A DNA stretch of 64,000 bases, from IMG/VR virus record IMGVR_UViG_3300017971_000041, positions 2,677-66,676 of that record. One strand, given 5' to 3'. This DNA comes from a virus. Below, piece by piece: positions 26,401 to 51,664 of the stretch. The first letter of the stretch is position 1, and every line of letters begins with the position of its first letter. A program made the translations under genes and the position numbers. The notes under the pieces were generated by a model. It saw only the letters and a program-made list of their open reading frames with translations, did not search any database and was not told where the DNA came from.

Positions 26401-26643
26401 CTATTTCTCGTTTTGAGAGTAAATGCCAATGACTCGAACAATACCTTCGCGGGTGCAGAGGTATTTGTGCAAGTCGATTAAAAATCGTTTCTCAGGTCGA
26501 TCAATCGAGTAAATCTCCGGCTCACCATCGACAGTTACAATAACCACATGTTCGGACATGATGCCCAAAGATTTATCGAAACCGTAATATTCAACATTGT
26601 TGCCAGATTCGTCTTGTACAGTAAATGTTCTCTGGTCGTTCAT
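26401..26643 (-). CDS. Hypothetical protein
   Basis: RBS AAGGAG and its own promoter. Confidence 0.65.
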   Translation of the reverse strand: MNDQRTFTVQDESGNNVEYYGFDKSLGIMSEHVVIVTVDGEPEIYSIDRPEKRFLIDLHKYLCTREGIVRVIGIYSQNEK

Positions 26644-26669
26644 GTAATTCTCCTTTCGTGTTATGGGTA

Positions 26670-26698
26670 TTTATATTCGAAAAAATATTAAATGTCAA
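26670..26698 (-). promoter_or_regulatory. Sigma70-type promoter
   Basis: TTGACA-N17-TATAAA. Confidence 0.7.
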
Positions 26699-26702
26699 CA
26701 GG

Positions 26703-26738
26703 AAAGGTCCCTTTATTGTGAAAGGGACCTTTTTTTTT
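26703..26738. terminator. Intrinsic terminator, possibly bidirectional
   Basis: AAAGGTCCCTTT / AAAGGGACCTTT with T run. Confidence 0.7.
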
Positions 26739-26740
26739 CG

Positions 26741-27109
26741 TTATGCAATCACAGAATATACCCAGCGAAAATTGCTCATTTTGAACATCCAGAATGTTTC
26801 ATGTTCAGACGGGGGCAGTTCATGTCTGTGTTTACGCAGGCGAGCACGGACAGCTTTCGCGGAAATTCCCAGTTGTTCAGCGAGATATTTAGGTGTAAAA
26901 TATACAACCTGTTTTTGTTCCTGTTTTTGTGTTCCTTTAACGTATCCAATTTCTGGATCGAAATTCGGAATCGGACCACCGAGGTCGTTAATGGAGACAT
27001 TAAATTTTTTCATTACTAACGAGAGTTTCGCCATTGCTGCTTTCATTTCTCCCTCAGTTCCAGGTCGGGCAGCAAGATTATATATTGATTGTATCGTTGA
27101 CATGTTCAT
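26741..27109 (-). CDS. DUF2786-like N-terminus plus shared HTH-like C-domain (paralogue 1)
   Basis: 'IYNLAARPGTEGEMKAAMAKL' and 'TPKYLAEQLGISAKAVRARLRK...LP....FWMF'. Confidence 0.75.
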   Translation of the reverse strand: MNMSTIQSIYNLAARPGTEGEMKAAMAKLSLVMKKFNVSINDLGGPIPNFDPEIGYVKGTQKQEQKQVVYFTPKYLAEQLGISAKAVRARLRKHRHELPPSEHETFWMFKMSNFRWVYSVIA

Positions 27110-27147
27110 GTTTTTTCCCCTTAGTGTTTGTTGTTAATCTTGCTTTG

Positions 27148-27176
27148 TTTATAAGAGAGAAAAAGATTTCTGTCAA
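27148..27176 (-). promoter_or_regulatory. Sigma70-type promoter
   Basis: TTGACA-N17-TATAAA. Confidence 0.7.
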
Positions 27177-27189
27177 CAGAAATTCTCGT

Positions 27190-27636
27190 TTATTTTAAAT
27201 GTTGGATAAAAATTTTCATGACGGGTTCTCGATGGGCAGAATCAAATTCCCAGCCTCTGGGTTTTAGTGGTTGGGGGATTGAAGTGCGATTTGAGCGCAG
27301 AATTTGACGTACCTTAGATGGCTTCAATCCAGTTTCTTCAACAATCGTTTTTACATTAAATGTACGGCCGCTAGGGACGAAATCTGGGTCTGGTTTGTAT
27401 GAACCCGATCCAGGCTTCGCCGTCTTTGTTTTTGTATCAGGAGACGGTTTCTGTGTGGGCTCTACGGAAGTATCGATGAAGATAACGAATGTTGAATTTT
27501 CACACAGTATGCGTAACTGTTCAGCTACCTCCGTGGCTTTATCTTCAGTAAATTTATTTTTCCCTTGAACCATGATGGGTTCTTCATCATAGTTGCCCTT
27601 CCGAAGTAATTTGTGGATGGAACAATTCTCAATCAT
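27190..27636 (-). CDS. Shared HTH-like C-domain protein (paralogue 2)
   Basis: 'FNVKTIVEETGLKPSKVRQILRS...IP....GWEF'. Start chosen after AAAGGA. Confidence 0.7.
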   Translation of the reverse strand: MIENCSIHKLLRKGNYDEEPIMVQGKNKFTEDKATEVAEQLRILCENSTFVIFIDTSVEPTQKPSPDTKTKTAKPGSGSYKPDPDFVPSGRTFNVKTIVEETGLKPSKVRQILRSNRTSIPQPLKPRGWEFDSAHREPVMKIFIQHLK

Positions 27637-27813
27637 TGATATTCCTTTCATAATTTACATATTTTCGTTTTGTAGACGTCGTCAGGTCGTCATATTTCAA
27701 CGATCGTTGTTTCACATGTATTATCATATGCATTTTCATTAAACGTTCGATATTCGACGAATCGTGTTGAATTTGACAAAAATGCATAAGAAAATACATG
27801 TAATTTGTAATAT

Positions 27814-28116
27814 TTAACGTGTGGGGTAATATTTCAAGAATTCAAGAAGGAGATCGTTCACTGTTTTTATGCCAGAATGTACCCATAGAGTTATACGCTG
27901 AAGGGCTCCTCCCCCAGTTTCCGGGGATTGCCATAGTTCAAATCGATAATACCTTTCTGTCTTTATTTCTGGTAGCTTACCGTCAATATAATCCCAAAGT
28001 TGTGTTTTATCCGTCTCGATTGGTACCTGAATATTCTCAATCTCGTCATATTGATCAAAATTAATTTGTTTCCCTGCGGCTGGTCCACCGATAAGGTGGT
28101 TATATTTTATTTCCAT
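27814..28116 (-). CDS. Hypothetical protein
   Basis: RBS AAGGAG; 'LIGGP..G' N-terminus common in small phage proteins. Confidence 0.65.
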   Translation of the reverse strand: MEIKYNHLIGGPAAGKQINFDQYDEIENIQVPIETDKTQLWDYIDGKLPEIKTERYYRFELWQSPETGGGALQRITLWVHSGIKTVNDLLLEFLKYYPTR

Positions 28117-28155
28117 ATTTTCTCCTTGTTGGGCGCCCGAAGGCGCCCGTTTCAG

Positions 28156-28359
28156 TTATTTAATAAAATCGATTTCCACGGTTGCATATGACAGTCGGGC
28201 AGCGGCTTTGACACCTCTGATGTAAGAGGAGACATCAGCAGGTTTGTAAAATGTTTCAGTATTTCTGAGAGTGCTTGCGATTCTGGAGGTTGTTACCTCA
28301 AATGTTGCAGTTTCGAGCATTTCGTCGAGGGAGGTTTTTATTTCGATGCGAATTTTCAT
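28156..28359 (-). CDS. Hypothetical protein
   Basis: Start MKIRIE after AAAGGA; promoter upstream. Confidence 0.6.
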   Translation of the reverse strand: MKIRIEIKTSLDEMLETATFEVTTSRIASTLRNTETFYKPADVSSYIRGVKAAARLSYATVEIDFIK

Positions 28360-28395
28360 GATGGTTCCTTTCTGTTTGTTGTTAGTCATGCTTCT

Positions 28396-28424
28396 GTTAT
28401 AAGAGAGAATGATCGGGATGTCAA
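28396..28424 (-). promoter_or_regulatory. Sigma70-type promoter
   Basis: TTGACA-N17-TATAAC. Confidence 0.7.
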
Positions 28425-28456
28425 AGAAAAATGGAAAATTCTTTTCATAAAACCAA

Positions 28457-28481
28457 GGAGCCCCTCCCAATGAGGGGCTCC
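28457..28481 (-). terminator. Hairpin terminator
   Basis: GGAGCCCCTC / GAGGGGCTCC. Confidence 0.6.
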
Positions 28482-28508
28482 CACAACAACAACAACAACA
28501 ACGAAAGG

Positions 28509-28946
28509 CTACATATACCCGTAGCAGGTTGGACCGAAACCCGTCTTAATGCTCTTGGGGACGGTCAGTCGACGGCCACAACGTCCGCAGCGGCCTTCAT
28601 GATAAAAGTGAACGGTCTCGGGGATTTGTTTCGTTTGGCTGTTTTTCAATTTTGAATACACCCATTTAAATGCCTGCATCGAAATTGCTTTTTCCGAGAC
28701 TCGAGATTTTTTCGTAAGACGGAAATTCATATCCCGATCAATGATTCCCATATATGAATAATTTGAATTATTATCAGGGCCAGACAGCAATGAAACGAAC
28801 CAAATTTTATTCGTGAACATGTCAAAATCCCGAGGCTTTGAAATTTTAAAGGTGAAGCGGTTTCTGGTCGACTCGTTCTCAATTGTAAAAATCGATTTGC
28901 CCGCAAGAATAAATGATAGAGCATCGTCCCAGCTAATTTCATTCAT
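28509..28946 (-). CDS. DUF6011-like zinc-ribbon protein
   Basis: 'FILAG...FT', 'L.GPDN...Y.YMG', 'HEGRCGRCGRRLTVP.SI..G.GP.C'. Confidence 0.8.
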   Translation of the reverse strand: MNEISWDDALSFILAGKSIFTIENESTRNRFTFKISKPRDFDMFTNKIWFVSLLSGPDNNSNYSYMGIIDRDMNFRLTKKSRVSEKAISMQAFKWVYSKLKNSQTKQIPETVHFYHEGRCGRCGRRLTVPKSIKTGFGPTCYGYM

Positions 28947-29168
28947 GATGATTCCTTTCAATTAATATCAATTATGTTTAATATTTACATGACATTCATT
29001 AATAAGTCAACAAATATTTTAAAAATATTTCTCCGGACACAACGAAGATACAGACACAAATAATAAATTCTGCAAAGGCCTTGCTTCTAATCGTCTCAAC
29101 ACACCCAACGAAGGCAACTATCCAAGTCGTTATCGCCAGTATGGCAACAGATAATGCAGTCAACTCAA

Positions 29169-29369
29169 TCATCCCTTCCCCCGTGATATTACATCATTAG
29201 AGCCCTCACCGTGGACGAATCGGACTTGGGTCCACGGGATGCGATATAATCCCTGTGATATGTCGTTGGTTTCAATGAACAAGAATTTAGAGTCGGTCAG
29301 GTCGTAGCGGACTCGACCCAAAACTACGATTTCTCTGTCTATGAGTTGGATTGTAAGGGCGCGATTCAT
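29169..29369 (-). CDS. Hypothetical protein
   Basis: 66 aa; ATGA-coupled to the upstream gene. Confidence 0.55.
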   Translation of the reverse strand: MNRALTIQLIDREIVVLGRVRYDLTDSKFLFIETNDISQGLYRIPWTQVRFVHGEGSNDVISRGKG

Positions 29370-29800
29370 GACAAACCCCCTATTGTGTTGGATAACAGGT
29401 GTCCAGTGATGTTTGTTGAGAATGATTCTTCTTTGGAATCTGGGTTCTCATAACAGTCTTGGCATAAAAACCGCAAGCCAGGGCCAACAGGTTTGTGGTT
29501 ACAGCATGAGCATGTTTTCCTGGCTAATGGTTTTTTCGGAACGTCGGCATAATCATTGCGGCAGGACTCACAATTTTGGATATTTAGAACGTCCTTGTCT
29601 TTGTATAAAACGAATATCTTATTACATTTTGCACACGGCTTTTTGATAGCCACGAGTTTTTTGGGTTTCTTGCCGCAAATTTTACAAGGTTGGAAAATTT
29701 TACGTTCTCGCCGTAAATGGTCTCCCCATTGGTGGCAACAGTCGTATTTGTAAAATTTCTCGCCGTTATTAATTTGAAGACGGGCTTTACGAATTGCCAT
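29366..29800 (-). CDS. Cys-rich multi-zinc-finger protein
   Basis: Start MAIRK after AGGAG; several CxxC pairs. Confidence 0.65.
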   Translation of the reverse strand: MAIRKARLQINNGEKFYKYDCCHQWGDHLRRERKIFQPCKICGKKPKKLVAIKKPCAKCNKIFVLYKDKDVLNIQNCESCRNDYADVPKKPLARKTCSCCNHKPVGPGLRFLCQDCYENPDSKEESFSTNITGHLLSNTIGGLS

Positions 29801-30191
29801 TACTTTTCTCCTTTGCTTTTTTGACACACCCAAAGTCGATGTCAGCCAGGGCGGATATGACAGCACATGTTTGGCAAGGTCTCGAGGTCCAGTGATGTGG
29901 GTCCTGTTCGATGGCTTCCAATATTGGAGCAAGACAAAGAGATCTCAACTCAAGGATCGCAGTACGAACTTGGGTCGCAAGGTTAGCAGCTTGGTCCCTC
30001 TCTTCAATTAATGCATTGAATAATTCGATTCCTTCTTCGGGGACATCAGGTAAATTACCTCCCGGCCAAGCAGTTTTCATGATCTCTGTGAACGACCCCC
30101 AAGTCAAAAAATATCCATCAAAATTGTCTAAATCTCCCTTCAGATTCGGACATGCTTCGTAAATTTTGTCCATCAATTCTTGTTCGTTCAT
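29787..30191 (-). CDS. Hypothetical protein
   Basis: 134 aa; 'DPH.W..RPCQTC' motif. Confidence 0.65.
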   Translation of the reverse strand: MNEQELMDKIYEACPNLKGDLDNFDGYFLTWGSFTEIMKTAWPGGNLPDVPEEGIELFNALIEERDQAANLATQVRTAILELRSLCLAPILEAIEQDPHHWTSRPCQTCAVISALADIDFGCVKKAKEKSNGNS

Positions 30192-30391
30192 TACACCCCC
30201 CGCTCAATAGTTAATAAATCCGCGTTCATAGCTGCCTGTAAATATGTCAGGGGAAGGAGCTGATTGTGCCAAAAGACCACATCCGTGGTTGTAACTCGTT
30301 GAACGATCATCAGAATTTGATTGTTTACGCCAGAGATTAAAAGATCTCCTGGTCTCATCTCAGCCAAGTCTCTGATTTTTTGTCTTTGCAT
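30191..30391 (-). CDS. Hypothetical protein
   Basis: Likely start MQRQK after AAAGGA. Confidence 0.55.
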   Translation of the reverse strand: MQRQKIRDLAEMRPGDLLISGVNNQILMIVQRVTTTDVVFWHNQLLPLTYLQAAMNADLLTIERGV

Positions 30392-30603
30392 GTTTGTAGT
30401 TCCTTTCAGAAAATCAAAATTAGTTATCCTACGCAAACAGAAACAGCCAAATTTAAACGTTTACAGTTGCTTGTGCTTGCACCTATCCCGTTTATAGAGT
30501 AGCGTTGAATTTTCGCTATCTGGGGAATTTATCAAAATTCATGCCAATTTTTTTATCGTGCTGAAAGACAAATCTGGCATGAAAATTGCTATTTAATATT
30601 CAC

Positions 30604-30632
30604 GTTATATCTCGAATCGATCCTGATGTCAA
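30604..30632 (-). promoter_or_regulatory. Sigma70-type promoter
   Basis: TTGACA-N17-TATAAC. Confidence 0.65.
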
Positions 30633-30642
30633 TAAAAATCCC

Positions 30643-30671
30643 GGGAGACAGACAAGATTTGTCTGTCTCCC
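30643..30671 (-). terminator. Hairpin terminator
   Basis: GGGAGACAGACAA / TTGTCTGTCTCCC. Confidence 0.65.
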
Positions 30672-30677
30672 AAAATT

Positions 30678-30914
30678 TTATTTCAGGAGCTTTAAATTGG
30701 CAAGGATATTGCTTATAGCCACATCAACTACGACCCGATCCGTCGTTGGAAGAGACCCCGTTCGATCTTCGATTATTTCGAGATTGTCAGAAATTACTGT
30801 AGCGATTTGATTAATCTCGGTTCGGGTTTCAGTGGCTGCCATTTCAATGTCTTCTAATTCAAAATCAGTATACAGTAGATCGATAATTTTTTGGAGCTTG
30901 TTAGTTGTCGTCAT
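30678..30914 (-). CDS. Hypothetical early protein
   Basis: CAA-rich leader, GGAGG, promoter TTGACC-N17-TATAAA at 30960-30988. Confidence 0.7.
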   Translation of the reverse strand: MTTTNKLQKIIDLLYTDFELEDIEMAATETRTEINQIATVISDNLEIIEDRTGSLPTTDRVVVDVAISNILANLKLLK

Positions 30915-30996
30915 GTTGTTTCCTCCGTGTTGTTGTTGTTGTTTTGTTAATCATGATTATTTATACAAGACATCAATAGAAAGGTCAACAGAAATC

Positions 30997-31086
30997 CTAG
31001 CCATGACCAAAATTTTTGAAATGAGCGTTTTTAATGTTGGAATTAAGGATGGTGGCCTGGTTGTTGATGAGTTCGATTCTGTTCAT
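30997..31086 (-). CDS. 29-aa small ORF (MNRIELINNQATILNSNIKNAHFKNFGHG)
   Basis: CAA leader, AAGGAG RBS, promoter TTGACA-N17-TATATA at 31133-31161. Confidence 0.5.
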   Translation of the reverse strand: MNRIELINNQATILNSNIKNAHFKNFGHG

Positions 31087-31431
31087 TTTGTTTCTCCTTG
31101 TTGTTGTTGTTTGTTGTTCATCTTGCTTTATATATATACCACGGGTCCTTTAAGATGTCAAGAAAAATCCCAGATTTTTTTTAAAAATTTCCACGGTCTT
31201 AGCTCTCGAAAATCCGATGCTGTTTGTTTTTAGATAGCTAGCTATCGACATTAAAAACAGGAACCATAAATCAGACCTGGCTGTCTGTACGAGAGATGCC
31301 GTCAACAGCAGCCAGACTCGATATTTAGAACGTATTTCTTTTGTCGATAGCTAGCTATGAACGAGATCTCCAAACATGATTTTTGAGCAACTGAGCAGCA
31401 GAAAAAAACTCTAAAAAATCCGGGGTTTTTC

Positions 31432-31460
31432 TTGACAAACCCAAGCGGCTTTGGTATATA
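31432..31460 (+). promoter_or_regulatory. Sigma70-type promoter
   Basis: TTGACA-N17-TATATA with TG extension. Confidence 0.7.
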
Positions 31461-31503
31461 TCAAGCACAACACACAACAACTTACTAACGAAAGGAACAA
31501 AAC

Positions 31504-31875
31504 ATGAAAAAACAACTAATTCAAAAAATTTACAATCTCGCCGCCGCACCAGGAACTGCAGGAGAAGGATTTGCTGCAATGACAAAATTGGCCGCTCTCC
31601 TCAATAAATACAACTATAACATTAATGATTTCGGCGGCCCGATCCCGGGATTCGACCCGAAAACGGGTCCGACCACCGATGACGCTTCTGATGAAAAATC
31701 CGAAGAAATTCAATATGTTACACCTAAAGAAATTGCTGCAAAAATGGGCATCTCCGCAAAAACTCTCCGCGCCCGTCTTCGCAAACATATCAACGATCTT
31801 CCGATCTCCGAACACGAAAAACGTTGGGTGTTTAAGGCTGAAGATATTGATTTTATTATCAATATCGTCTCCTAA
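31504..31875 (+). CDS. DUF2786-like N-terminus plus shared HTH-like C-domain (paralogue 3)
   Basis: Full-length paralogue of 26741-27109. Confidence 0.8.
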   Translation: MKKQLIQKIYNLAAAPGTAGEGFAAMTKLAALLNKYNYNINDFGGPIPGFDPKTGPTTDDASDEKSEEIQYVTPKEIAAKMGISAKTLRARLRKHINDLPISEHEKRWVFKAEDIDFIINIVS

Positions 31876-31893
31876 TACACAATCACACAACTC

Positions 31894-31920
31894 GCCCCCG
31901 TCGTTCGACGGGGGCTTTTT
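31894..31920 (+). terminator. Intrinsic terminator
   Basis: GCCCCCGTCG-TT-CGACGGGGGC-TTTTT. Confidence 0.8.
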
Positions 31921-32808
31921 CGGGGGTTTTTAGCGTAGCTATGAGACGAGATTGAATGATTGTCCACGGTGGGTAGGATCCCTCGTGTTTGCATTTATGT
32001 TAAAATGTCGGCGGCCTGACAGCGCTTGTTGACCAGTTCCTCAGGAGCTGTAAATCGCGGCATATTGACGAGGGGATAGCTAGCATACCAGGTTGTCGAT
32101 TGTCGTGAAAATGGGTTGCTAAACCGCCGTGGTACGCCCACGCCCGTAAGACAGCTGTACTCCTGAATACCACGGTAGTCGACAGTGTCGTATGCCAGCT
32201 ATCCACCAGGATAATGCATGCTCTGAGGACTCCGTGGTTGACTCACAGGACAATGAGAGCAGAACACCTTCAGACCTCCGTGGTTGTCAGTATTTTTATT
32301 AGTTGAGTATGGCTATCCGCTTTTTCGGTGCTCGTTGTAAATCTTATTTAACAGCGTCAGGGGGGTACAGGCCCTTGAAGGTCCCTCAATGCGCGTATAT
32401 TCGACTCAGATCGGAAATGCATGTTCATGTATTCAATTGATCGGCGCCCGTCAAATACCGTCACTGACAGCGTTATAACAGGCTGGTTGTTCAGCTCGCG
32501 ATATTTGAATGCTAATTGACAATGCATGTTATGATATTCATTGTATGTCGATAGGTCGATATTCGTCAGCTGAGGCTCTGCATTTTTCAATGTCCTGATA
32601 AAAAAAATGATATTGTCGAACGTCATATTATGAGTCTGGGTTTTGTTATTGGATGGTGTCACGAATACGTCTGGGATATCGTTGTGAGAGGAGCCAGATA
32701 GCCGAAAATGGCAATATTGGAGCTGTACTCAATGCTTGCTATTCGGGCTGGTTTTGACCAAAAAAAATCGAGCGAGACATGCGTCTCGCCCGATTTTTGT
32801 GTTGTGTG

Positions 32809-33288
32809 TTAGATGATTTTTTTGATAATTTCAAGCGTATAGCGAATGTTAAAAACCCATCGTCCCTCGATTTCAGTCGGGGGCAATGTTTCGCCGTTGT
32901 CGCGCAATTTGCGCAGTTTGCGTCTGATTGATTTTTGATCGATGCCTGTTTTGTATGCAATGTCTTTCATCGTGAACGTTACAGGCGTGTCAGGTACGAT
33001 TATGACAATGATCGGGCGCGAGGTTAATTCTTCACAATTTGCGGAGACAGGCAGGTCGTTTTCGACGAAGACAGCGTAATCAAACAGGGTCTCGTTATGT
33101 TCGTGAATTAATTCAGGATTTTCAATTTTTGTTTCTGTAATCGTTACGTTCATGTCAGCCTCCAAATGTTTGATTTTTTTAATGATAAGACGTTTCGCCA
33201 TTTTGTTTGATTTGAGTGATTTCAGGCCTGCAATGTTGCGCAGTTCGTTCAGTCGAGTGAAGAGTTCGTTTGTAGTTGCGTTTTTCAT
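32809..33288 (-). CDS. Shared HTH-like C-domain protein (paralogue 4)
   Basis: Start MKNATT after AAAGGA. 'FTMKDIAYKTGIDQKSIRRKLRK...LP...GRWVF'. Promoter at 33349-33377. Confidence 0.75.
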   Translation of the reverse strand: MKNATTNELFTRLNELRNIAGLKSLKSNKMAKRLIIKKIKHLEADMNVTITETKIENPELIHEHNETLFDYAVFVENDLPVSANCEELTSRPIIVIIVPDTPVTFTMKDIAYKTGIDQKSIRRKLRKLRDNGETLPPTEIEGRWVFNIRYTLEIIKKII

Positions 33289-33948
33289 TTTGTTTTCCTT
33301 TCGTTTGAGTTGTTGTTGTTGGTCACGTTTTCTGTTAATCATGCTTCTTTTATAAGAGAGATCGGTCGTGATGTCAAAGAAAATCCTAGATTTTTTTACA
33401 TATTAGGTAAGTTTTTTCAAAATCAGAAATAACGTACTGAATTTGTTGGACAAATCACCCAACTCCAACTGAGGTCCTCAAATCAGCCACGTTGGGAGAT
33501 CGTCCTTATGTGAATAGTACGTATCGTCTACCGCTCCGATCTTCTCGTCTGGCTTGACTCACTCCGCGGAAACGATTCCTATTTTAATGAATAAAAATGC
33601 AGGTATGGCGTTTAAAAAAGCCACGGTGTGAGGGCTCGAAAATGGTGAGTATTTTTATTGTTCGTAGCTGGCATACGGGGGAAAATTAACAGAGCACATT
33701 CGAGCTCTGAGGCGGTTGGACTATTCCATTTTCGTTATTGATTTAAAAGTGGAAGTTTTGTTGGGTAACAATGGAGAAATTCGCCAATGGACACGGTTCA
33801 TTGCGCCGATTTTGAATTCTTACGTCCCGTCTCTTATGCTTGCTATCCACGTCCGTGTGGAGCCGTATGATGCATTAAAACGTCTCTATTTAATGATTCT
33901 AAAAAAACGATTCGCGGACGGGTACGCGAATCGTTTTTTTTTAGAATT

Positions 33949-34284
33949 TTACATAGGTGTCAAGAATGTTGCATGAATACGGTAGAATTTGTTTGTGTGA
34001 GTTCGTATCAATATCAGGTTAGTACGTTTGATATGGTGCACAATTTCGACAAATTCACATGTATGAAATGTGGGAGCATATTCATCGATTTTTGCATCGA
34101 TTATGAACGTTTCAGACGTGTTAATCGGTTGTGCAATCATCAGGAATGACAGGCGTTCGAGTTTGTTGTAGTCAAATAGTGTGTTTTCGAGTTCAAACAG
34201 GCAAGATTTGCAGATAAGTACGTTCATGTGGATTTTCAGGTCGTCGTCGTTGTGGAGATTTTGACAAAAATAACAATGTTTCAT
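33949..34284 (-). CDS. Hypothetical protein with N-terminal CxxC...CxxC
   Basis: Start MKHCYFC after AAAGGA; promoter at 34337-34365. Confidence 0.6.
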   Translation of the reverse strand: MKHCYFCQNLHNDDDLKIHMNVLICKSCLFELENTLFDYNKLERLSFLMIAQPINTSETFIIDAKIDEYAPTFHTCEFVEIVHHIKRTNLILIRTHTNKFYRIHATFLTPM

Positions 34285-34359
34285 TTGATGTCCTTTTGTG
34301 TTATGTTGTTGTTGTTTCCCGTCGTTCATGAGTATATTTTTACCAAATTTTGTTCGTGG

Positions 34360-34425
34360 TGTCAACAGAAAAAATGGATTTAAAAATCTTTTTTAAATCC
34401 ATTTTTTGTCGATTTTCTGTTGACA
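34360..34425. repeat. Inverted repeat joining two back-to-back divergent promoters
   Basis: TGTCAACAGAAAA...TTTTCTGTTGACA enclosing AAAATGGATTTAAAAA / TTTTTAAATCCATTTT. Confidence 0.75.
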
Positions 34426-34494
34426 TCCGCTCTAATTTCTGTTATTTATATATTCATGAACGACAACAATAACACAAAAACAGAAAGGGACAAC

Positions 34495-34773
34495 ATGAAC
34501 GAAAAACGCGATTTACCCGAAATAACTGATCGTGATCTCTGTGAATTATTTATTGATCAATGTGCATTGTTTGACCCCTCACATGTCAAAAACATTATGT
34601 CTCGTCTCGACCGTGAACGTGCGAATTTTCGACAAATTTACGACATCATGGAATCAATCGGATTTGACTCAATGTACGATCATTTCCTCGATTACACTGA
34701 ATTCGATGATCTGTCGATTGACATTGAACATGTTTGCTATAACGCTGTCGAATTATTGATGAAAAAATTGTAA
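34495..34773 (+). CDS. Acidic hypothetical protein
   Basis: Promoter at 34420-34448, RBS, downstream hairpin near 34781-34813. Confidence 0.65.
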   Translation: MNEKRDLPEITDRDLCELFIDQCALFDPSHVKNIMSRLDRERANFRQIYDIMESIGFDSMYDHFLDYTEFDDLSIDIEHVCYNAVELLMKKL

Positions 34774-34830
34774 CGATAACAAAAAATGCGATGTCTTCAC
34801 GAATCGCATTTTTGGCGGAAAATTTAGAAT

Positions 34831-34905
34831 TTTTGGAATAGAGATTGCATCGGAGAAATGGAATAGAAATTGCCGGAGAGTTTTGGAATAGAAATTGCAT
34901 CGGGC
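34831..34905 (+). repeat. Three direct repeats at 25-bp period
   Basis: GGAATAGARATTGC at 34835, 34860 and 34885. Confidence 0.75.
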
Positions 34906-34946
34906 TTTTTTGTTGACAAGAAAAAATAAAAATGGTAAAATTAACT

Positions 34947-35000
34947 AACACTCCGAGTAGAATTGACTTCTCCTTAAGTCAGTGTCTGTACTTCTTTTTT
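34947..35000 (+). ncRNA. Candidate small RNA of about 55 nt with a CUCCUU loop
   Basis: Promoter TTGACA-N17-TAAAAT at 34913-34941; no ORF; stem TGACTT/AAGTCA around CTCCTT; ends in T6. Confidence 0.5.
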
Positions 35001-35272
35001 GACATGGATAGCAAGCGATCTGATGTTCTATAAACTCGTTATGTACGCAATATAGACCGCCCTCTGATCGAAATTTCCCAGACATCAATGACATTTAATC
35101 TCCATTTTCGTAATTTTAAATCAGGCCGTTAAATAGCGAATTTTCAACCTGGATAGCTAGCTATCCGTGTATTGTAAACGTGCTATATTTGCTGAATAAA
35201 CCAGATCTGGGGCGAGATTTAAGAGACATCACACAGAAAAATCTCGCCCCAGAATTTATAATCCTTCTACGA

Positions 35273-35674
35273 TCAATTCAAAGAGTTGATGTCTGTATTT
35301 CTTACTATTAGCCACGGTCTTTGCAAGCGTCTGGCAGCTGTTGCAGTCAGTAACCAACTCGCTGTAGCCAGCGACCAGTTCGTGATGCATCGTGCATTTT
35401 TCGACGTTAAGACGTTCACAACAGTGCCTTCTGACGACTTTCTGTACAACGAAGCAACCTCCTCGTGGTTAGTATACATGTCCCCGGCATGTAAATATTG
35501 TTCCGGAGAAATTAAAGTATCGATTTGATCATAAGGAATCAGGACGTCAATGTCCGAAATCCCCTCGACATAATCTCCAAATACAAAAGATCCGGTTATT
35601 TTTCCTGACATAAGAAATTTTACAGGAAGACATTTTTTATCTTGTATTGCTCGTTTGATTTTTTGGGATATCAT
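35273..35674 (-). CDS. Pol-beta-superfamily nucleotidyltransferase-like small protein, possibly frameshifted
   Basis: 'ITGSFVFG......SDIDVL' motif. Confidence 0.6.
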   Translation of the reverse strand: MISQKIKRAIQDKKCLPVKFLMSGKITGSFVFGDYVEGISDIDVLIPYDQIDTLISPEQYLHAGDMYTNHEEVASLYRKSSEGTVVNVLTSKNARCITNWSLATASWLLTATAARRLQRPWLIVRNTDINSLN

Positions 35675-36045
35675 GATTTGTCTCCTTTGATTCCAATGTA
35701 ATATCCGTGTTTCCTCGGGGTCTTACGGATCAGTTTTGGTCTGGACATAACAGCTTGGTATTTCAGAGAAACTTTGTACTCAAAATATTCCCGGGTCTGG
35801 GTCCAACCACGGGTGTTGGGTCTTTTAGGTGGTCGAGATAGTTCGACGTCCATGGCACCAATGAAGCTGTCAATGGCTGCTATCAAACGTATATCATTAA
35901 CCCGTATCGTGTTGACCGCTTTTTCAAATGCCTTTATTTCTTGTTCCAGTTTGATCTGTTCTTCGATCATTTTGCGTAGAGTTGCGGCAGCAGTGACAAG
36001 AGAGAGACCTTTCCCGGATTTAAATTTCAGAACTTGGTTGTCCAT
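35671..36045 (-). CDS. Hypothetical protein
   Basis: RBS AGGAG; coiled-coil N-terminus. Confidence 0.65.
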   Translation of the reverse strand: MDNQVLKFKSGKGLSLVTAAATLRKMIEEQIKLEQEIKAFEKAVNTIRVNDIRLIAAIDSFIGAMDVELSRPPKRPNTRGWTQTREYFEYKVSLKYQAVMSRPKLIRKTPRKHGYYIGIKGDKS

Positions 36046-36053
36046 GTTTTCTC

Positions 36054-36629
36054 CTATATTTTACTGTACAGTTTCAGAATGCATTCACGGGTTGCTCGAA
36101 CATCGACCAATGCATCATGAGCCCCCTCGAGGTCTACCTTCAGTACATTACAAACCGTTTGCAATTTATAATTTGGGAAAATGAATTCTTGTCTCCGGAG
36201 TTCATACATCAAACAAATCTGCCGTAAATCCAAGAAAGCAGAGCGGATGAATGAGAACCAATATGGGTCGTTATTTTTCAAAAAGAACGAGCTGATGAAT
36301 TGACAATCAAAATCAACATTTTGACCACACAAGACAAATTTGTCGTTTCGGTTATATGGGTCCACATATTGAGATAAGAATTTCTTGAACTCGTAGTATA
36401 CTTCATCCCCGGGCGCGAAACCTTCCATATCTTGTTTTGCAATGCCATGGACAGCCAATGATTTGTCGGTAATCGAATCAAAATTGAAGGGCCGGATATT
36501 CCGTATAAACTCGAACACTGACGACTCCCCATTGACAATAATTTCGGCAAGAGCAGCCACTTGGATGACGTCATTTTCTTTAGGATCCAACCCCGTGGTT
36601 TCTGTATCCATCCACAAAAATTTAAACAT
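36054..36629 (-). CDS. DEDDh 3'-5' exonuclease
   Basis: 'DTETTGL', 'GQNVDFD', 'AHDALVDV'. Confidence 0.92.
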   Translation of the reverse strand: MFKFLWMDTETTGLDPKENDVIQVAALAEIIVNGESSVFEFIRNIRPFNFDSITDKSLAVHGIAKQDMEGFAPGDEVYYEFKKFLSQYVDPYNRNDKFVLCGQNVDFDCQFISSFFLKNNDPYWFSFIRSAFLDLRQICLMYELRRQEFIFPNYKLQTVCNVLKVDLEGAHDALVDVRATRECILKLYSKI

Positions 36630-36630
36630 A

Positions 36631-36960
36631 TTAGCGCCTCCTATAATAAAGTTTTTCGGTAGAAAGTAAATAGTTGTAAAATCGAACTAAGAAAATTTCT
36701 CGGGTTGGGATTCGTCCCCAGTATAATTGAAGCTTTTTTAATTTGTTGATTTCTCGAGTCAGGTTACCCCGCTCAGGGCCCTCGCACGTTGGTTCTCCAC
36801 GTTTTATGATACAGAACTCATATACCAAGAGGAAGTACTCATTCATTGTATTTTTCATCGTGTTAAGGTCCTGAAAGCGGATATCCCGTTCAACGATCTC
36901 GAGGACAAATCGCTTGAAATCCTGCAATGTACAATTGATTTTTTGTCCATTTATTATCAT
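36631..36960 (-). CDS. Hypothetical protein
   Basis: 109 aa, coupled to the ligase. Confidence 0.55.
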   Translation of the reverse strand: MIINGQKINCTLQDFKRFVLEIVERDIRFQDLNTMKNTMNEYFLLVYEFCIIKRGEPTCEGPERGNLTREINKLKKLQLYWGRIPTREIFLVRFYNYLLSTEKLYYRRR

Positions 36961-38150
36961 TTATCCCATCGCCATCCCTTAAATCGTGGTTGTCGGAGTG
37001 AGCCTTTTTTCGTTTCTTCTTTATACTCGATTGTAGCAACTACGCCCATGAATCGATCTTTGTTTTCCCAAATGTATGAACGGACCAGGGTTTTTTCATT
37101 GCCTAAAAGGACCGACTTAAATCCCGTCCCAACCCGAACTTCTCGATTTTTATACTGGACGACAATACCCCCGAGCGACCCTTCGTTTGCCCCCGTCCCC
37201 TCGTAGAACCCGATAACTCGACAATCAACGGATTTTATCGGGACTCGCCTTTGCCAATCATAACCACGTTTGTCTTTGTACAGTGAATTTGGATCATAGA
37301 TTACGATTCCTTCCTCTCCATCATTAACACTCTGGGCGAAAAATAAATCGAGCTCCTTAAATGAATTAATCGGGTAGTGAGGAATGAGTTGGATGTGACT
37401 TGAACCCAACACTCCCGTCTCGAAATGTTCAGCTAATATGTTATAACGTTCGGCCTTTATAGCCTCCACGGATGGGATGTCAAAGACATTCAAAATCGCG
37501 GTTGGAAGTTGTTGGTGGTTGCGAATCAATCCCGAGGCGGAATCGAAGTGGTGGCCTGGGACTGTAATCTCGGCGTCGAGTTCGTATGGATACGATTCCA
37601 ATGCTTCAAGCAAATGGTCGACTCCAAGGACTTCATGGCCAGACCGTGTTACGAGCTTTCCCCCTATGTATCTTCCTCGGACTCCGTCTTTTTTGACTGC
37701 AGCCAGGACCGGGATTTTTGTGCGTTTTTTCTTATACGATTTTAAAAGCATTACCGAGGGCTTTTTTGACCCATCGAAAGTCAATGGAATGAGGCCGGGG
37801 AAAACGGTATTAATTGTCCGAATTCCAATACCAGCCCGGAGATCTCTGTCGATAATACGCTTTGCCAACTCACATGTCGGTCCGTCCATTGCTTGCAAAC
37901 ATTGCCGGACTTTCATTTCAGCTTCGGCCCCAGATAATTCCCTCGTGGATAATAAATCGAGCATTTGAAAAAACGAATCCTCGAGAATGTTTACGGAGCC
38001 AGCCCCTCTGATGTCAGGAGCTGTGATAAAATATTTTTTAAAAGGATTGTATGTATATTCTAAGATCTCCCGTAGGTGATGATTTTTATTTAAAATTTCT
38101 TGTTTCTTATGGCCGGATGCACGACTGATACAATCAATGATCTCTAACAC
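36957..38150 (-). CDS. ATP-dependent DNA ligase
   Basis: 'KKDGVR' motif I, 'LDAEI', 'VFDI', 'EGIV', OB domain 'VGTGF', 'SLRQPRF...RWDK'. Confidence 0.93.
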   Translation of the reverse strand: MLEIIDCISRASGHKKQEILNKNHHLREILEYTYNPFKKYFITAPDIRGAGSVNILEDSFFQMLDLLSTRELSGAEAEMKVRQCLQAMDGPTCELAKRIIDRDLRAGIGIRTINTVFPGLIPLTFDGSKKPSVMLLKSYKKKRTKIPVLAAVKKDGVRGRYIGGKLVTRSGHEVLGVDHLLEALESYPYELDAEITVPGHHFDSASGLIRNHQQLPTAILNVFDIPSVEAIKAERYNILAEHFETGVLGSSHIQLIPHYPINSFKELDLFFAQSVNDGEEGIVIYDPNSLYKDKRGYDWQRRVPIKSVDCRVIGFYEGTGANEGSLGGIVVQYKNREVRVGTGFKSVLLGNEKTLVRSYIWENKDRFMGVVATIEYKEETKKGSLRQPRFKGWRWDK

Positions 38151-38210
38151 AGTTCCCCCTTTCGACTAATGTCATGTATTCTCACGACATTAGTAGAAGT
38201 ATGATTTTTG

Positions 38211-38516
38211 TTATATGAAGCCCAGGTATTCGAACAATTGCTCAGGCGTAAAATCGTAGATCAGATATGTAGCCATAATATAATTTGCCTCGTCGACTGT
38301 CCACAATTGACTATAAAAGTTCAGTTGTGCAGCCAATAATAAGAGATTGTTCGTGTTGATGGATTTTTCCGAATGAGTTGCCAGGACCGCCTTAAAGCGG
38401 TCAATTTGCGAGAGAATGTCAGCGTCGGTAACAATATAACTCTCCATAAAGCAGTGTCGTTCCTTGTCCTTTAAAGCAGTGTAACGTCTTAATTCTTCTA
38501 CGTCCCGAAATTTCAT
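38211..38516 (-). CDS. Hypothetical protein
   Basis: RBS AAGGAGG. Confidence 0.65.
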   Translation of the reverse strand: MKFRDVEELRRYTALKDKERHCFMESYIVTDADILSQIDRFKAVLATHSEKSINTNNLLLLAAQLNFYSQLWTVDEANYIMATYLIYDFTPEQLFEYLGFI

Positions 38517-38531
38517 AATTCCTCCTTGTTG

Positions 38532-38951
38532 TTATATGTCCAAAATTTCAATCAAATCTTTTTCATAGCGACTGTCAAATTTCCATGTTTTGTTAGAAAG
38601 TCGAGGGGGGAGTTCGTAAGATTTTTGTTTCCTCAAAATTTTACGAATTTTTGAAGGTTTCATGTTCAGTTCTATTGCAAGATCAGCAGGTGTTATGATT
38701 CGAATTTTGTTTTCGTGCAATTCACAATTAATTGTTCTTCGACAAAGAATCGTAACAATTCGTGTGATTGAATGATCGGAGAGATTTAAATTTTCGCCGG
38801 TCAAAGAGTCAGCAAAATCACGATAATGAGCAGGACCCTCTTTTGAGATATCAATTTTCTTTTCGGAGCAGGTATCGAGTAAATTTTGATACATAGAATC
38901 GTGTTTTTTATTTATGTAGTTGATGTCGTTTTTAATTTGTGATTTTTGCAT
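38532..38951 (-). CDS. Shared HTH-like C-domain protein (paralogue 5)
   Basis: 'ITPADLAIELNMKPSKIRKILRK...LP...TWKF'. Promoter at 38984-39012. Confidence 0.75.
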   Translation of the reverse strand: MQKSQIKNDINYINKKHDSMYQNLLDTCSEKKIDISKEGPAHYRDFADSLTGENLNLSDHSITRIVTILCRRTINCELHENKIRIITPADLAIELNMKPSKIRKILRKQKSYELPPRLSNKTWKFDSRYEKDLIEILDI

Positions 38952-39082
38952 TGTGTTTCTCCTCGTTGTTAATTGTTACGTTGTTTATAATAGAGAAATC
39001 ACACAATGTCAACAAAAATCTTAGGAAATAAAAGCCAGATTCCGAATCCGGCTTTTATTTCCCCAACAACAACAACGACACA

Positions 39083-39613
39083 TTAAAACAGAGTGAGAAT
39101 ATGGTCCCAATATTCGATCCTGAAGACCCAGCCTCCGGGTTTTTCAGATTCGGGTAGCAAGTCAGATTCGTCTTCCCGGTATTTACGAAGGATTCGGCGA
39201 GTTTTAACCGGAGTTATTTTTAAATGATTAGCAATGTCTTTAACAGTAAAAGTTTCCACGGGGGTGGGATCTGGCTCGACAATCTCGTCCAGGTCGGTCA
39301 ATTCAGCTACCGCCTCTTCGTTCAGGGTATCAGCGAGTTCGATCAATTTTTCAGTCGTCCAGGTTTCCATCGGAGCAAACCAGTAAGTGCCCTCGGCATT
39401 TTTAATAGACGTTATCAGTTCCTCGCGGCAATTTTCAGTAGGGGTCGGTTTTTTGATTGTGGTCAGTTTTGCGGCCAGGACCTCGATTTTTTCGATCATA
39501 ACGGCTTTAGAATATTTACAAGATTTCAGAGGTTTCATTCCTGAAGATTGTCGCAGATTGTTTAGGTGGGCGAATATTTCTTTCGCGGTATTTGTCGTAT
39601 CGATCGTGGTCAT
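39083..39613 (-). CDS. Shared HTH-like C-domain protein (paralogue 6)
   Basis: 'FTVKDIANHLKITPVKTRRILRK...LP...GGWVF'. N-terminus related to paralogue 4. Promoter TTGACA-N17-TATACT at 39658-39686. Confidence 0.78.
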   Translation of the reverse strand: MTTIDTTNTAKEIFAHLNNLRQSSGMKPLKSCKYSKAVMIEKIEVLAAKLTTIKKPTPTENCREELITSIKNAEGTYWFAPMETWTTEKLIELADTLNEEAVAELTDLDEIVEPDPTPVETFTVKDIANHLKITPVKTRRILRKYREDESDLLPESEKPGGWVFRIEYWDHILTLF

Positions 39614-39717
39614 TGTTGCCTCCTGTGTTTGTTGAATTTGTTTCGTTTTGAAGATCCAGTATAAGAGACATTGATTGAGGTGTCAACACAAATCCCGGGT
39701 GTTGACACCTTTTTTTA

Positions 39718-40461
39718 TTATTTTACAATTTTCTTGATAACATCAGTTCGATATTTCATTTCCCATACCCAACGACCCGATTGGATCGGTTGTGGCAATT
39801 CGTTTTTCAATTTACGAATTTTGATTCTGAGTTTTTTCGCGGGGATTCCGAATTCTTTCGAAAGATCTTGGACAGAAAATGTTTCAGATGGGGATTCCAT
39901 GTTCTCATATGGATCGACGACTTTTGGTTTTACAGTTTTTGGATCGGGTGCAGGTTTTTGCGTTTGCGTTTGTGTTTGTTTCTGATGTTTGACCTTTTTA
40001 TTGACAATTGACAGATTCCTGCATCCACAACTTGCACAACGGGAATGAGCGATTTTATGACGAAAACGTTTTGTCAATTTGATTCGATAAGCAAGGGGTT
40101 TTTTACATCCCTCACAGACAACAACGTAATTAAAGGTAGGCCCGTCTCCAGCATTCGTCGTTCGGGTAGGCTCGGCCCCAATTCGTTTAGCAATTTGTTT
40201 CCAAACGTGGTCATGAGCAGAATAGCCACGGGTTTTGACGTCAATCATGTGAGCAATTTCATGCAAAATTACGTCTTCAAATTCTGGTTTTGGGAAGGTT
40301 CCTATGACGTGCGAGAATCTGACCTCGAGGACCTCTTTTGTGTCGCGAATGTATTTGACAGCGCCCATAGTTCTTTGTGCATTCGTCAAAATTATTGGGA
40401 TATTTTCAAATCCATGCATTTTCATCATTTTGCGGGCAGTGTAAGCAATGTCAGTCATCAT
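39718..40461 (-). CDS. SprT-like zinc metalloprotease fused to the shared HTH-like C-domain (paralogue 7)
   Basis: 'ILHEIAH...H...WK.IA..IGA.P', CxxC...CxxC, 'FSVQDLSKEFGIPAKKLRIKIRK...LP...GRWVW'. Promoter at 40502-40530. Confidence 0.85.
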   Translation of the reverse strand: MMTDIAYTARKMMKMHGFENIPIILTNAQRTMGAVKYIRDTKEVLEVRFSHVIGTFPKPEFEDVILHEIAHMIDVKTRGYSAHDHVWKQIAKRIGAEPTRTTNAGDGPTFNYVVVCEGCKKPLAYRIKLTKRFRHKIAHSRCASCGCRNLSIVNKKVKHQKQTQTQTQKPAPDPKTVKPKVVDPYENMESPSETFSVQDLSKEFGIPAKKLRIKIRKLKNELPQPIQSGRWVWEMKYRTDVIKKIVK

Positions 40462-40719
40462 TTTCTCCTTTGTTGTTGTGTTCTATGTTGTTGTTATGAA
40501 GAACATATGAGAAAATGATTTAAATGTCAACAAAAAATCTAGATTTTATAGAAAAATTTTATTCCTTATTATAACATGATATTTTACGAATGTAGACAGT
40601 GTCAGATGATCAAAATTCAACGATCATATCGACACGCATATAATGACATGTATCGAAAATTATCGTTGAATTTTGACGAGCTCATGAACCACATTATTTT
40701 CATCAATAAAATCAATATG

Positions 40720-40989
40720 TTATTGTTTATCCAGAGACAGGAATGCCATAATTTCGTTTAATTCTCTGGCATTGCGTAGCAAATTGAGTCGACCCCTCAG
40801 TCTTTGAACCATAGCAAACCGTTGGCGGGACTTCAATTCCACATATAGTAACTCCCGTACCTCGTCCTCTTGCATGAATTTTAATCCTACATGGATCTTT
40901 TTCCAGTTCGACAAGCGGTCCAGTATTTCAATAAATCTGGGCTTCGACATTTCTATATTATCAAATAATTCAGTTACAAAAGTTCCCAT
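40720..40989 (-). CDS. Hypothetical protein
   Basis: 89 aa, downstream of the polymerase. Confidence 0.6.
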   Translation of the reverse strand: MGTFVTELFDNIEMSKPRFIEILDRLSNWKKIHVGLKFMQEDEVRELLYVELKSRQRFAMVQRLRGRLNLLRNARELNEIMAFLSLDKQ

Positions 40990-42989: not shown

Positions 42990-43751
42990 TTACTCCTTGT
43001 ATTGAGGAAGGTTTGATGGTAAAGTTTCGTGAATACCTTCGGTTATTTCATGGTTCTTATCGATTTTACCGATTGCCATTACTGAGATTGCTGCCATTTG
43101 CAACAGCCGCTTCTTTAGCTCAATTCGCCAGTGGGGATTTTGTAACGAGATTTGTGAAATCTTATCAAGACGTTTAGCAAATACTCGTCTCATTTCCTCC
43201 AAACCCATCCCGTGGTTCATGTCAGACCAAAGAAATTCTTGGACGGTCCTGGCGGCTTTAATCGTTTTAGCGATTGCTAATTCTTCGAGGTCAAGGGCAG
43301 CTTGTGTGTCTTGATATTGGATTTCCTTGATATTAGCTTCCCGGATAAGGGCATCGCGGCAATCGCTGGATAAATAGTGTTTGATATAGTAAATTCGTTT
43401 AATTTTTGTCGTTGATATCAGTTTAATACAATTAATACAAGGTCGTACTGTACAATATAACTCTGTGTTTGTCAACCCTTCTTTTCCACAGGATTTTAAT
43501 CCCTCGATTAAGACATTTACCTCAGCGTGTATTGCCGGACATTTATCAAGGTCTTTTCCTGAATTGTCGCCTTTAGGATTTCGTTTACAGGTTTCACAAT
43601 GGGGGTGACCAGATGGGGGCCCATTGTAACCGGTTGCAACAATTCGACTATCTCGGACCAACAATGCCCCAACCCGACGACTGAGGCACGTTGACCGAGC
43701 GGCAACCAATTTTGTGATTTCCATAAAATAATTTTGGCGGCCGAGTCGCAT
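42990..43751 (-). CDS. dCMP deaminase with a helical C-terminal extension
   Basis: 'RSTC..R.VGA', 'TGYNG', 'HAEVN', 'PCINC'. Confidence 0.9.
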   Translation of the reverse strand: MRLGRQNYFMEITKLVAARSTCLSRRVGALLVRDSRIVATGYNGPPSGHPHCETCKRNPKGDNSGKDLDKCPAIHAEVNVLIEGLKSCGKEGLTNTELYCTVRPCINCIKLISTTKIKRIYYIKHYLSSDCRDALIREANIKEIQYQDTQAALDLEELAIAKTIKAARTVQEFLWSDMNHGMGLEEMRRVFAKRLDKISQISLQNPHWRIELKKRLLQMAAISVMAIGKIDKNHEITEGIHETLPSNLPQYKE

Positions 43752-43754
43752 GAT

Positions 43755-44450: not shown

Positions 44451-44575
44451 TATTTTCCTCCGTTAATAAAATAATAATATGAATAACACGTACCCAATGA
44501 TGAAAATACTTAAAATTGTGTCAGAATTCATGATGTTTCTTTCATAACACACATGGATGTCAGAGTCAATAAATT

Positions 44576-45721: not shown

Positions 45722-45778
45722 TATATTTTCTCCAAGTAACAAGCATTTAATTCGTTATGGTTCATGGGGGCCTTTTAT

Positions 45779-46405: not shown

Positions 46406-46463
46406 GATTTTTCCTCCTATTGCAATTTAATAAGTTTAACATTGTCCACGTCATTGACATGGT

Positions 46464-51656: not shown

Positions 51657-51664
51657 GTCAACCT

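Follow-up and report, generated by a model that had tools for sequence, protein, structure and literature searches.

Seven genes of one viral genome combine different N-terminal modules with a shared C-terminal domain of predicted winged-helix fold

The DNA analyzed here (the window) is a stretch of 64,000 nucleotides corresponding to bases 2677-66676 of virus record IMGVR_UViG_3300017971_000041, which comprises 66,676 bp, has direct terminal repeats and carries a completeness rating of 100%. A sequence-only reading had described seven open reading frames (ORFs) at 26741, 27190, 31504, 32809, 38532, 39083 and 39718 as variable N-terminal modules on one common C-terminal helix-turn-helix (HTH)-like domain. 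All seven ORFs, here called members 1 to 7 in this order, were confirmed at these coordinates. Alignment of their ends (alignment A1) revealed a homologous domain of about 56 amino acids (aa) in 7 of 7 ORFs with pairwise identities of 19-45%. Four residues, R24, R28, P35 and W43, are invariant in all seven domains. Member 3, the sole member on the plus strand, and its features given below have plus-strand coordinates; the remaining members and their features lie on the minus strand.

Member 1 (26741..27109 in the ORF list) codes for 122 aa with a DUF2786-like N-terminus, a linker and the C-terminal domain (26744..26917). The 153-aa product of member 2 (27190..27651) carries a unique N-terminus and a Pro/Thr/Lys-rich linker in front of the domain (27193..27366). 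Member 3 (31504..31875, 123 aa) has a DUF2786-like N-terminus and an acidic linker leading to the domain at 31699..31872. In member 4 (32809..33342, listed with 177 aa), an N-terminal helix-loop-helix module of 36 aa (33169..33276) precedes the domain at 32812..32985. Member 5 (38532..38951, 139 aa) joins a unique N-terminus to the domain (38535..38708) without a low-complexity linker. Member 6 (39083..39613, 176 aa) starts with a 36-aa module of the same kind (39482..39589), followed by an acidic helical middle part, a PDPTP linker and the domain (39086..39259). The largest product, the 247 aa of member 7 (39718..40461), consists of a SprT-like metalloprotease with two CxxC motifs, a Gln/Thr/Pro/Lys linker and the domain at 39721..39894.

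Common descent of the seven domains was supported by leave-one-out profiles. Hidden Markov models (HMMs) built from six members found the held-out seventh at E 7e-13 to 9e-18; the values recorded for the domains of members 1, 2, 3, 4, 5 and 7 are 8.9e-18, 7.2e-13, 7.3e-17, 2.7e-17, 1.1e-12 and 3.5e-15. Of 1,168 six-frame segments, none outside the family scored better than E 0.06, and exactly seven copies of the domain were present across the whole 66,676-bp record. The leave-one-out result rules out that the family is a chance similarity or a low-complexity artefact. In the seven proteins the domain occupies the extreme C-terminus with 0-3 residues beyond its last helix, and can be recognized by the signature K-x-h-R-x-x-L-R-K ... 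L-P ... W-x-F. The consensus motif proposed from the sequence was present in all seven members in a slightly idealized form, since ORF 27190 has LRS for LRK and IP for LP. Members 1 and 3 have the helix RARLRKH in common, and the exposed positions of helix 2 vary among the paralogues in A1. The domain has a net charge of +3 to +8 in six of the seven members; the family median is +6.

The N-terminal parts differ in how clearly they can be assigned. The protease nature of the N-terminus of member 7 was borne out. Its SprT-like domain (aa 27-98; 40168..40383) passed the Pfam profile PF10263 with 34.3 bits against a cut-off of 25.6, and it contains an intact HExxH motif (HEIAH, aa 67-71; 40249-40263) and CxxC pairs at aa 116 and 142. 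Members 1 and 3 are 49% identical over their full length and were both thought to begin with a DUF2786-like region. The resemblance is there, covering aa 7-39 of member 1 (26993..27091) and aa 6-37 of member 3 (31519..31614) and profile positions 7-39 and 6-37 of 40. With 13.6 and 13.0 bits, both stretches stay below the PF10979 cut-off of 23.9, and the assignment is a resemblance only; both members also weakly match phrog_421. The N-termini of ORFs 27190 and 38532 were described as unique and matched no Pfam or PHROG family at significant E. The P/T/K/E-rich linkers noticed in most members were found as a Pro-rich low-complexity stretch ahead of the domain in 5 of 7 proteins; ORF 38532 has none and ORF 32809 only a short one.

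The second recurrent front end is the 'ELF..LN.LR' module (N-module), which had been noticed in ORFs 32809 and 39083 (HMM E 7e-16 and 3e-21). It recurs in 22 outside proteins, in which the linker between N-module and domain differs greatly in length. Its consensus reads T-x-K-E-L-x3-L-N-x-L-R-x2-N-G-K-x-P-L-K-S-W-K-E-S-K. In a full-length AlphaFold 2 (AF2) model of member 6, the N-module comprises helices 10-23 and 36-53 with a 12-residue loop between them, at a predicted local distance difference test score (pLDDT) of 94-97. A structure search with this module returned the Rho N-terminal domain (1a62) weakly, at Z 4.2 among many helical hairpins, and an Atlas feature lead pointed to a Rho_N cluster with a score of 0.78. 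Neither a SAP nor a Rho_N match was obtained from Pfam at E<=1. A helix-extended-loop-helix (SAP/Rho_N-like) nature of the N-module is thus suggested by the model as a lead, not as a result.

To assign a fold to the shared domain, we modeled the member 6 sequence with a 49-sequence family alignment using AF2 and obtained a confident model (pLDDT 94.5). It consists of strand 3-5, helix 6-13, helix 17-30, a 14-residue loop, strand 45-47 and helix 48-57. The best matches in an all-against-representatives comparison with VIA-align were the pSK1 Par DNA-binding domain (8csh, Z 5.5), the P1 ParA N-terminus (5.0) and a MerR regulator (4.8), followed by RacA (5i41, 4.7), BldC (6amk, 4.6) and the excisionase RdfS (4.1). 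Foldseek listed the RacA-DNA complex 5i44 in its first row (TMq 0.66), then GlnR, BldC, HiNmlR, RdfS and Pukovnik Xis (TMq 0.50). In the Atlas, 8 of 10 neighbour rows of the member 3 model belonged to HTH_17 and/or MerR_1 clusters with TM 0.59-0.70. The nearest solved structures are thus MerR-type winged helices, and the MerR/Xis-like winged helix postulated earlier gained support from the model's top PDB matches, the Atlas neighbours and sub-threshold Pfam matches to HTH_17 (PF12728; 24.1 bits for ORF 31504 and 19.6 bits for ORF 26741 at a cut-off of 27). On the basis of the model, we assign the domain to the MerR/excisionase (HTH_17-like) winged-helix class; the argument is the consistency of this class across the structure searches. 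In MerR-type domains the second helix is the DNA-recognition helix, and in the model it carries two invariant arginines four residues apart. The canonical MerR layout, an N-terminal winged helix followed by a long dimerizing coiled coil and an effector-binding domain, is not that of the family, in which the domain lies at the extreme C-terminus.

Sequence libraries gave little beyond this. In Pfam, the other members produced only scattered generic HTH rows, and among 83 outside members described below, HTH_17 matched four at E<=0.01. An NCBIfam scan of 15 family proteins returned nothing except SprT for the SprT fusions, and PHROG matches to the domain were weak rows without an informative family. 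Searching the sequences of solved structures with the A1 and A3 profiles gave chance-level rows only (best E 0.036; ribosomal protein eS25, AtxA and sigma factors), and hhalign against phage D29 Gp36/excise reached 28.6% probability over 23 columns.

Excisionase-type HTH_17 proteins such as lambda-type Xis, RdfS and Pukovnik Xis have the same order of secondary structure elements and a similar size. In contrast to them, the phage domain scores below the HTH_17 cut-off, is a C-terminal appendage of larger proteins and has its own signature. In addition, none of the 75 scanned ORFs of this phage encodes an integrase or another recombination gene of this type; integration and excision families were absent from them at E<=1e-5, a scan to which the first 2,676 bp of the record are external. 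As no integrase was found among these ORFs, a function of the family as excisionases or recombination directionality factors was rejected. The best structural matches of the domain, RacA, pSK1 Par and BldC (8csh, 5i41, 5i44, 6amk), are likewise small winged helices tied to another module or, in the case of BldC, standing alone. They differ in sequence, with 14-16% identity to the phage domain, and are cellular or plasmid-borne, whereas the phage family is multi-copy. RacA and Par have an N-terminal winged helix followed by a coiled coil. In the phage family, by contrast, the winged helix is C-terminal.

The domain is not restricted to this phage. A profile search of 1.84 billion representative proteins yielded 248 matches at E<=1e-3; by its sequence, the domain belongs to no curated family. 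Architectures were counted by re-scanning 150 listed of these 248 representatives. A full domain was found in 90 of the 150: 51 C-terminal (including six of the window's own), 34 stand-alone, three internal and two N-terminal. Among the matches listed, the stand-alone proteins measure 54-91 aa, and a further 52 re-scored rows were partial or repeat-type HTH matches. Both arginines are present in each of the 83 outside members, and the proline and the tryptophan are each retained in at least 90% of them. The combination of SprT, zinc ribbon and domain recurred in 3 of the 83 outside representatives. All relatives are metagenomic or viral. They are nameless or labeled 'hypothetical protein', apart from one labeled 'AraC-like DNA-binding protein', and precomputed Pfam domains are absent from all of them. 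As the relatives lack descriptive names, and after a literature search made by other means than sequence, we regard the family as undescribed. One outside two-module protein, P0062, has a middle stretch matching Pfam DNA_pol_A at E 3e-11 (1 of 83 members), which looks from its sequence like a piece of a polymerase acquired between N-module and winged helix.

When 50,697 records of isolated phages were searched by tblastn with member 6 and with P0009, a stand-alone relative, nothing matched at E<=0.1. With member 3 as query, a homologue search retrieved no protein other than member 3, a related-locus search with P0152 found no relative, and G001, the sole relative reached via the DNA polymerase, contains no copy of the domain. 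Copies were found in three other viral contigs: one in G002, four in G003, again with differing architectures, and two in G004. G002 (42.9 kb, 71% complete) is syntenic with the window over both genome arms, with identities of 53-61% for the polymerase, 71% for the thymidylate-synthase-like protein and 50% for the major head protein. Its single domain gene codes for a two-module protein and lies at a different locus. In G002, the homologues of ORF 40720-40989 and of the ligase gene adjoin, whereas members 5, 6 and 7 and one small ORF lie between them in the window; at least this trio therefore occupies a variable slot. A quick tree of 121 domain sequences was unresolved. The seven members need 6 label changes compared to a shuffled mean of 6.9, a value reached by 56 of 500 shuffles, and the only supported pairing is ORF 26741 with ORF 31504 (95). 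A single origin of the seven is compatible with the well-supported branches, and the tree therefore does not decide between expansion within the phage and separate acquisition.

PHROG scans of the 75 ORFs identify the virus as a two-armed tailed phage, judged by its gene content. The plus-strand arm (39-26163) encodes terminase, portal, protease, major head protein, tape measure and holin. The minus-strand arm, running from about 60.3 kb down to 26.2 kb, codes for a helicase, DNA polymerase A (40999-42987), an ATP-dependent ligase (36957-38150), an exonuclease, Cas4-type and Sak4-type recombination proteins, a single-stranded DNA-binding protein (SSB), two thymidylate-synthase-like proteins, a dCMP deaminase, a C5-methylase and kinases. 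No isolated phage has a polymerase more than 33% identical to this one. The regions 42990-46976 and 50443-52192 of this arm together hold the two thymidylate-synthase-like genes and those for dCMP deaminase, C5 cytosine methylase, a dUTPase_2/pyrophosphohydrolase-like protein and two nucleotide kinases. These genes, which are kept in G002, suggest that pyrimidines are modified. Between members 2 and 3, a 150-aa protein (28509-28961, minus strand) has a C-terminal DUF6011 (52.4 bits) and a strong match to phrog_20259. Long antisense ORFs overlap member 1 (26625-27137, plus strand) and member 3 (31516-31890, minus strand), and a longest-ORF gene caller prefers them over the real genes.

Each of six members is preceded by a TTGACA-N17-TAxxxx promoter located 7-44 nt upstream of the listed ATG, with a T-rich stretch further upstream. 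These are TTGACA-17-TATAAA sites for member 1 (27148..27176), member 4 (33349..33377) and member 5 (38984..39012), TTGACA-17-TATATA for member 3 (31432..31460), TTGACA-17-TATACT for member 6 (39658..39686) and TTGACA-17-TATGTT for member 7 (40502..40530). The claim that six of seven genes have a strong promoter of their own is thus confirmed, the exception being member 2, upstream of which lie ORFs 27629-27799 and 27814-28116. Promoter calls were made by direct inspection of the upstream sequences in place of a generic scan, which showed no overall excess (44 compared to 38.9 +/- 7.4) because it demands T at the last -10 position. TTGACA-17-TAxxxx sites themselves occurred 21 times in the window, compared to 0.95 +/- 0.97 in 200 first-order Markov simulations. 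Allowing spacers of 16-18 nt gave 23 sigma-70-like sites, all within 26.6-60.4 kb, and this window scan found none in the structural arm (1-26 kb). The late genes presumably need another mode of transcription, for which no activator was identified. Since the -10 box of member 4 ends at 33349, 7 nt before the listed ATG, translation more likely starts at ATG 33288, giving 159 aa as in P0003.

Terminator-like hairpins follow member 3 (31894..31915, with a T-run), member 4 (32772..32789, then a T-run on the minus strand) and member 6 (39023..39063, a 19-bp hairpin), and hairpins were also found after members 1 and 7. With their own promoters and hairpins, the family genes are therefore largely self-contained cassettes. 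Member 5 is probably bicistronic with ORF 38211-38516 because the latter lies directly 3' of it. From the host-type promoter consensus alone we infer early expression of the family genes. Taken together, variable N-termini, flexible linkers and separate promoters agree with the modular architecture first proposed.

The member 3 promoter belongs to a divergent promoter region of about 330 bp (31132-31461) that is quasi-palindromic, and makes up one of its arms. The inverted-repeat arms of this region, 76% complementary, are two outward-facing TTGACA-17-TATA promoters, and a second inverted repeat of 50 nt is located inside. Downstream of the same gene, the segment 31925-32345 is GC-richer, lacks a convincing ORF and contains five CCACGG words and a 34-nt inverted repeat. 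Its RNA fold z-scores are -2.9 for the minus and -1.85 for the plus strand. Rfam returned no family for the non-coding region 31850-32450, with a single row at E 0.078.

We propose that the basic domain anchors a variety of early-expressed front ends to DNA, a reading to which we give about an even chance. It is based on the class of the fold, the basic charge, a helix kept invariant across phages of 40-54% GC, the linkers, the partner modules and published analogues. The domain would bind duplex DNA through helix 2 with its invariant R-x3-R and through the following loop or wing. Specificity would be low or shared, because the helix is conserved between unrelated phages. Soon after infection, the fused front ends would be anchored to DNA, these being a SprT-type metalloprotease, the 36-aa helix-loop-helix module, the DUF2786-like hairpin and the two unique N-termini. 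The SprT fusion would thus be a DNA-tethered protease. The genes behave as independent promoter-gene-terminator cassettes in a variable part of the replication arm. That the domain addresses effectors to DNA, as first proposed, is plausible; the indications of DNA binding are indirect and consist of the fold class, the basic charge and the SprT and helix-loop-helix partners, which fit DNA-related roles.

Published work provides analogues. According to PMC5859096, the MerR-like winged helices of BldC, RacA and Xis bind DNA on their own, lacking an effector domain, and with few contacts to bases, a mode of binding that the phage domain would share. Cleavage of host proteins has been suggested for phage SprT-like proteases (PMC7824862), and PMC12363180 likens phage SprT-like proteins to SPRTN.

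Several observations speak against an anchor of this kind. The structural matches are all weak (Z <= 5.5, no Foldseek match at E <= 1e-3) and not decisive, modest scores being expected because the domain has only 58 residues. The domain stays under the HTH_17 cut-off and 5 of 7 members have no HTH_17 match at E<=1. The domain of member 6 has a net charge of 0, and the early timing is read from the promoter consensus only. Finally, the structural hits include CbpM and the N-terminal domain of CarA, MerR-like winged helices that bind proteins and not DNA.

The motif GGATAGC, one of the two types of target suggested by the sequence-only reading, was found 7 times compared to 3.9 expected, a count reached by 11 of 100 shuffles and not significant. 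What remained of that suggestion is that GGATAGC forms the edge of a 14-bp palindrome, GATAGCTAGCTATC, of which five copies with 0-3 mismatches were found (0.98 expected). They lie at 31233-31246, 31346-31359, 32075-32088, 35007-35020 and 35152-35165, all within 31.2-35.2 kb. Two of them are positioned between the divergent promoters 31161-31133 and 31432-31460, the latter of which drives member 3 and has both copies close upstream, and two are downstream of a plus-strand promoter at 34913-34941. By its sequence and arrangement, the palindrome looks like an operator.

These sites make it conceivable, if unlikely, that some or all members are sequence-specific transcription regulators with operators of their own, members 3 and 1 acting on GATAGCTAGCTATC and controlling divergent early units. 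The clustering of the five copies and their position between divergent promoters suit this explanation, as does the variation of exposed helix 2 positions among the paralogues. A further point is that no Pfam HTH family was found at E<=1e-3 in a subset of 35 mostly small minus-arm ORFs without PHROG match, so that the seven-member family is the only visible HTH supply of the phage. There is also a precedent in phage D29 Gp36, which PMC12266134 describes as a small MerR-type DNA-binding repressor. The operator-like palindrome and the lack of other HTH proteins in the 35-ORF subset therefore make a regulator role a serious rival for members 3 and 1. However, the helix 2 arginines and the K/R pattern are kept across phages of very different composition, which fits a shared binding mode better. 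Moreover, no dimerization element was identified, a SprT fusion is unlike a repressor, and a single palindrome family was found for seven proteins.

Still less probable in our view is a role of the domain as a protein-binding adaptor, which would dock the seven front ends not on DNA but on a single conserved protein of host or phage, for example RNA polymerase, a clamp or SSB. The structural hits include protein-binding members of the fold, CbpM (with CbpA), the CarA N-terminal domain and the IF2 N-terminal domain, and a universally conserved protein as target could also explain why a few residues are strictly kept in unrelated phages. An adaptor does not readily account for the basic charge of the domain, for the location of the conserved residues in the DNA-contacting helix of this class, or for the fusion to SprT-type proteases and to a helix-loop-helix module typical of DNA-associated proteins. 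In addition, the 34 stand-alone forms among the matches listed would have nothing to deliver.

The other proposed target was a pair of iterated hexamers. CCACGG/CCGTGG occurs 101 times in the window compared to about 21 expected and CCCAGA 85 times compared to about 23; no other hexamer of the window is as over-represented. Both words are found in either orientation and in every reading frame, and their excess is a real feature of the DNA. The base before CCACGG is almost never C (1 of 101), and a G/T-rich stretch comes after it. The claim that the domain reads these words found no support. G003, with four domain copies, has 10 CCACGG words compared to 10.5 expected and G004, with two copies, has 2 compared to 6.5. 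In G002 (loci L009, L019 and L020), CCACGG was found 18 times in L009 compared to 4.3 expected, and 26 more, as a count only, in the other 28.65 kb. CCCAGA shows no excess in G002, G003 or G004. Domain copy number and CCACGG do not track, because G002 has the excess with a single copy, and phages of 40-54% GC all keep the arginines of the recognition helix. A reader of self and non-self DNA, which would direct the protease and the early modules to a phage-specific mark (CCACGG, CCCAGA or a modified pyrimidine) or keep them off, is the explanation we consider least credible: the hexamer counts, the one domain gene of the syntenic G002 with its CCACGG excess and the phage genes for two ThyA-like proteins, dCMP deaminase, C5-methylase, a dUTPase_2-like protein and kinases would fit it, but the motif is not enriched in G003 and G004, and a link between domain and word lacks support of any kind.

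For the proposed DNA-anchoring module, further parallels in architecture are found in other families. In the KilA-N, Bro-N, ANT and Rha proteins, one DNA-binding module is combined with many partner modules, often in several copies per virus. Their fold is different, and the Pfam matches of outside members to ANT (3 of 83) and ORF6N (1 of 83) at E<=0.01 were marginal. SPRTN combines a protease with a DNA-binding region. Member 7, above the SprT-like cut-off and with HExxH and two CxxC motifs, has a comparable layout of protease and DNA-binding-type appendage, but its appendage is a new winged helix. For SprT-like proteins of jumbo phages, PMC7824862 names host proteins as likely targets and not a role in the repair of crosslinks.

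Both the fold and the reuse of one DNA-binding module in different phage proteins by shuffling are already known. New are a domain family that current libraries do not recognize, its consistent C-terminal placement with two recurrent partners, and the presence of seven copies as separate promoter-bearing cassettes in one 66.7-kb genome. The analysis provides a compact, searchable domain family missed by Pfam, NCBIfam and the informative PHROG families, and a predicted fold with a DNA-binding hypothesis for seven otherwise blank genes of the early region. It also defines a recurrent two-module protein, composed of an N-terminal helix-loop-helix and a C-terminal winged helix, and offers, in the recurrent SprT fusion, a concrete candidate for a phage protease tethered to DNA. 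Should the domain be a generic DNA anchor, it could be used as a small tag. If it is specific for a sequence or a modification, it would bear on how phages discriminate their own DNA from that of the host.

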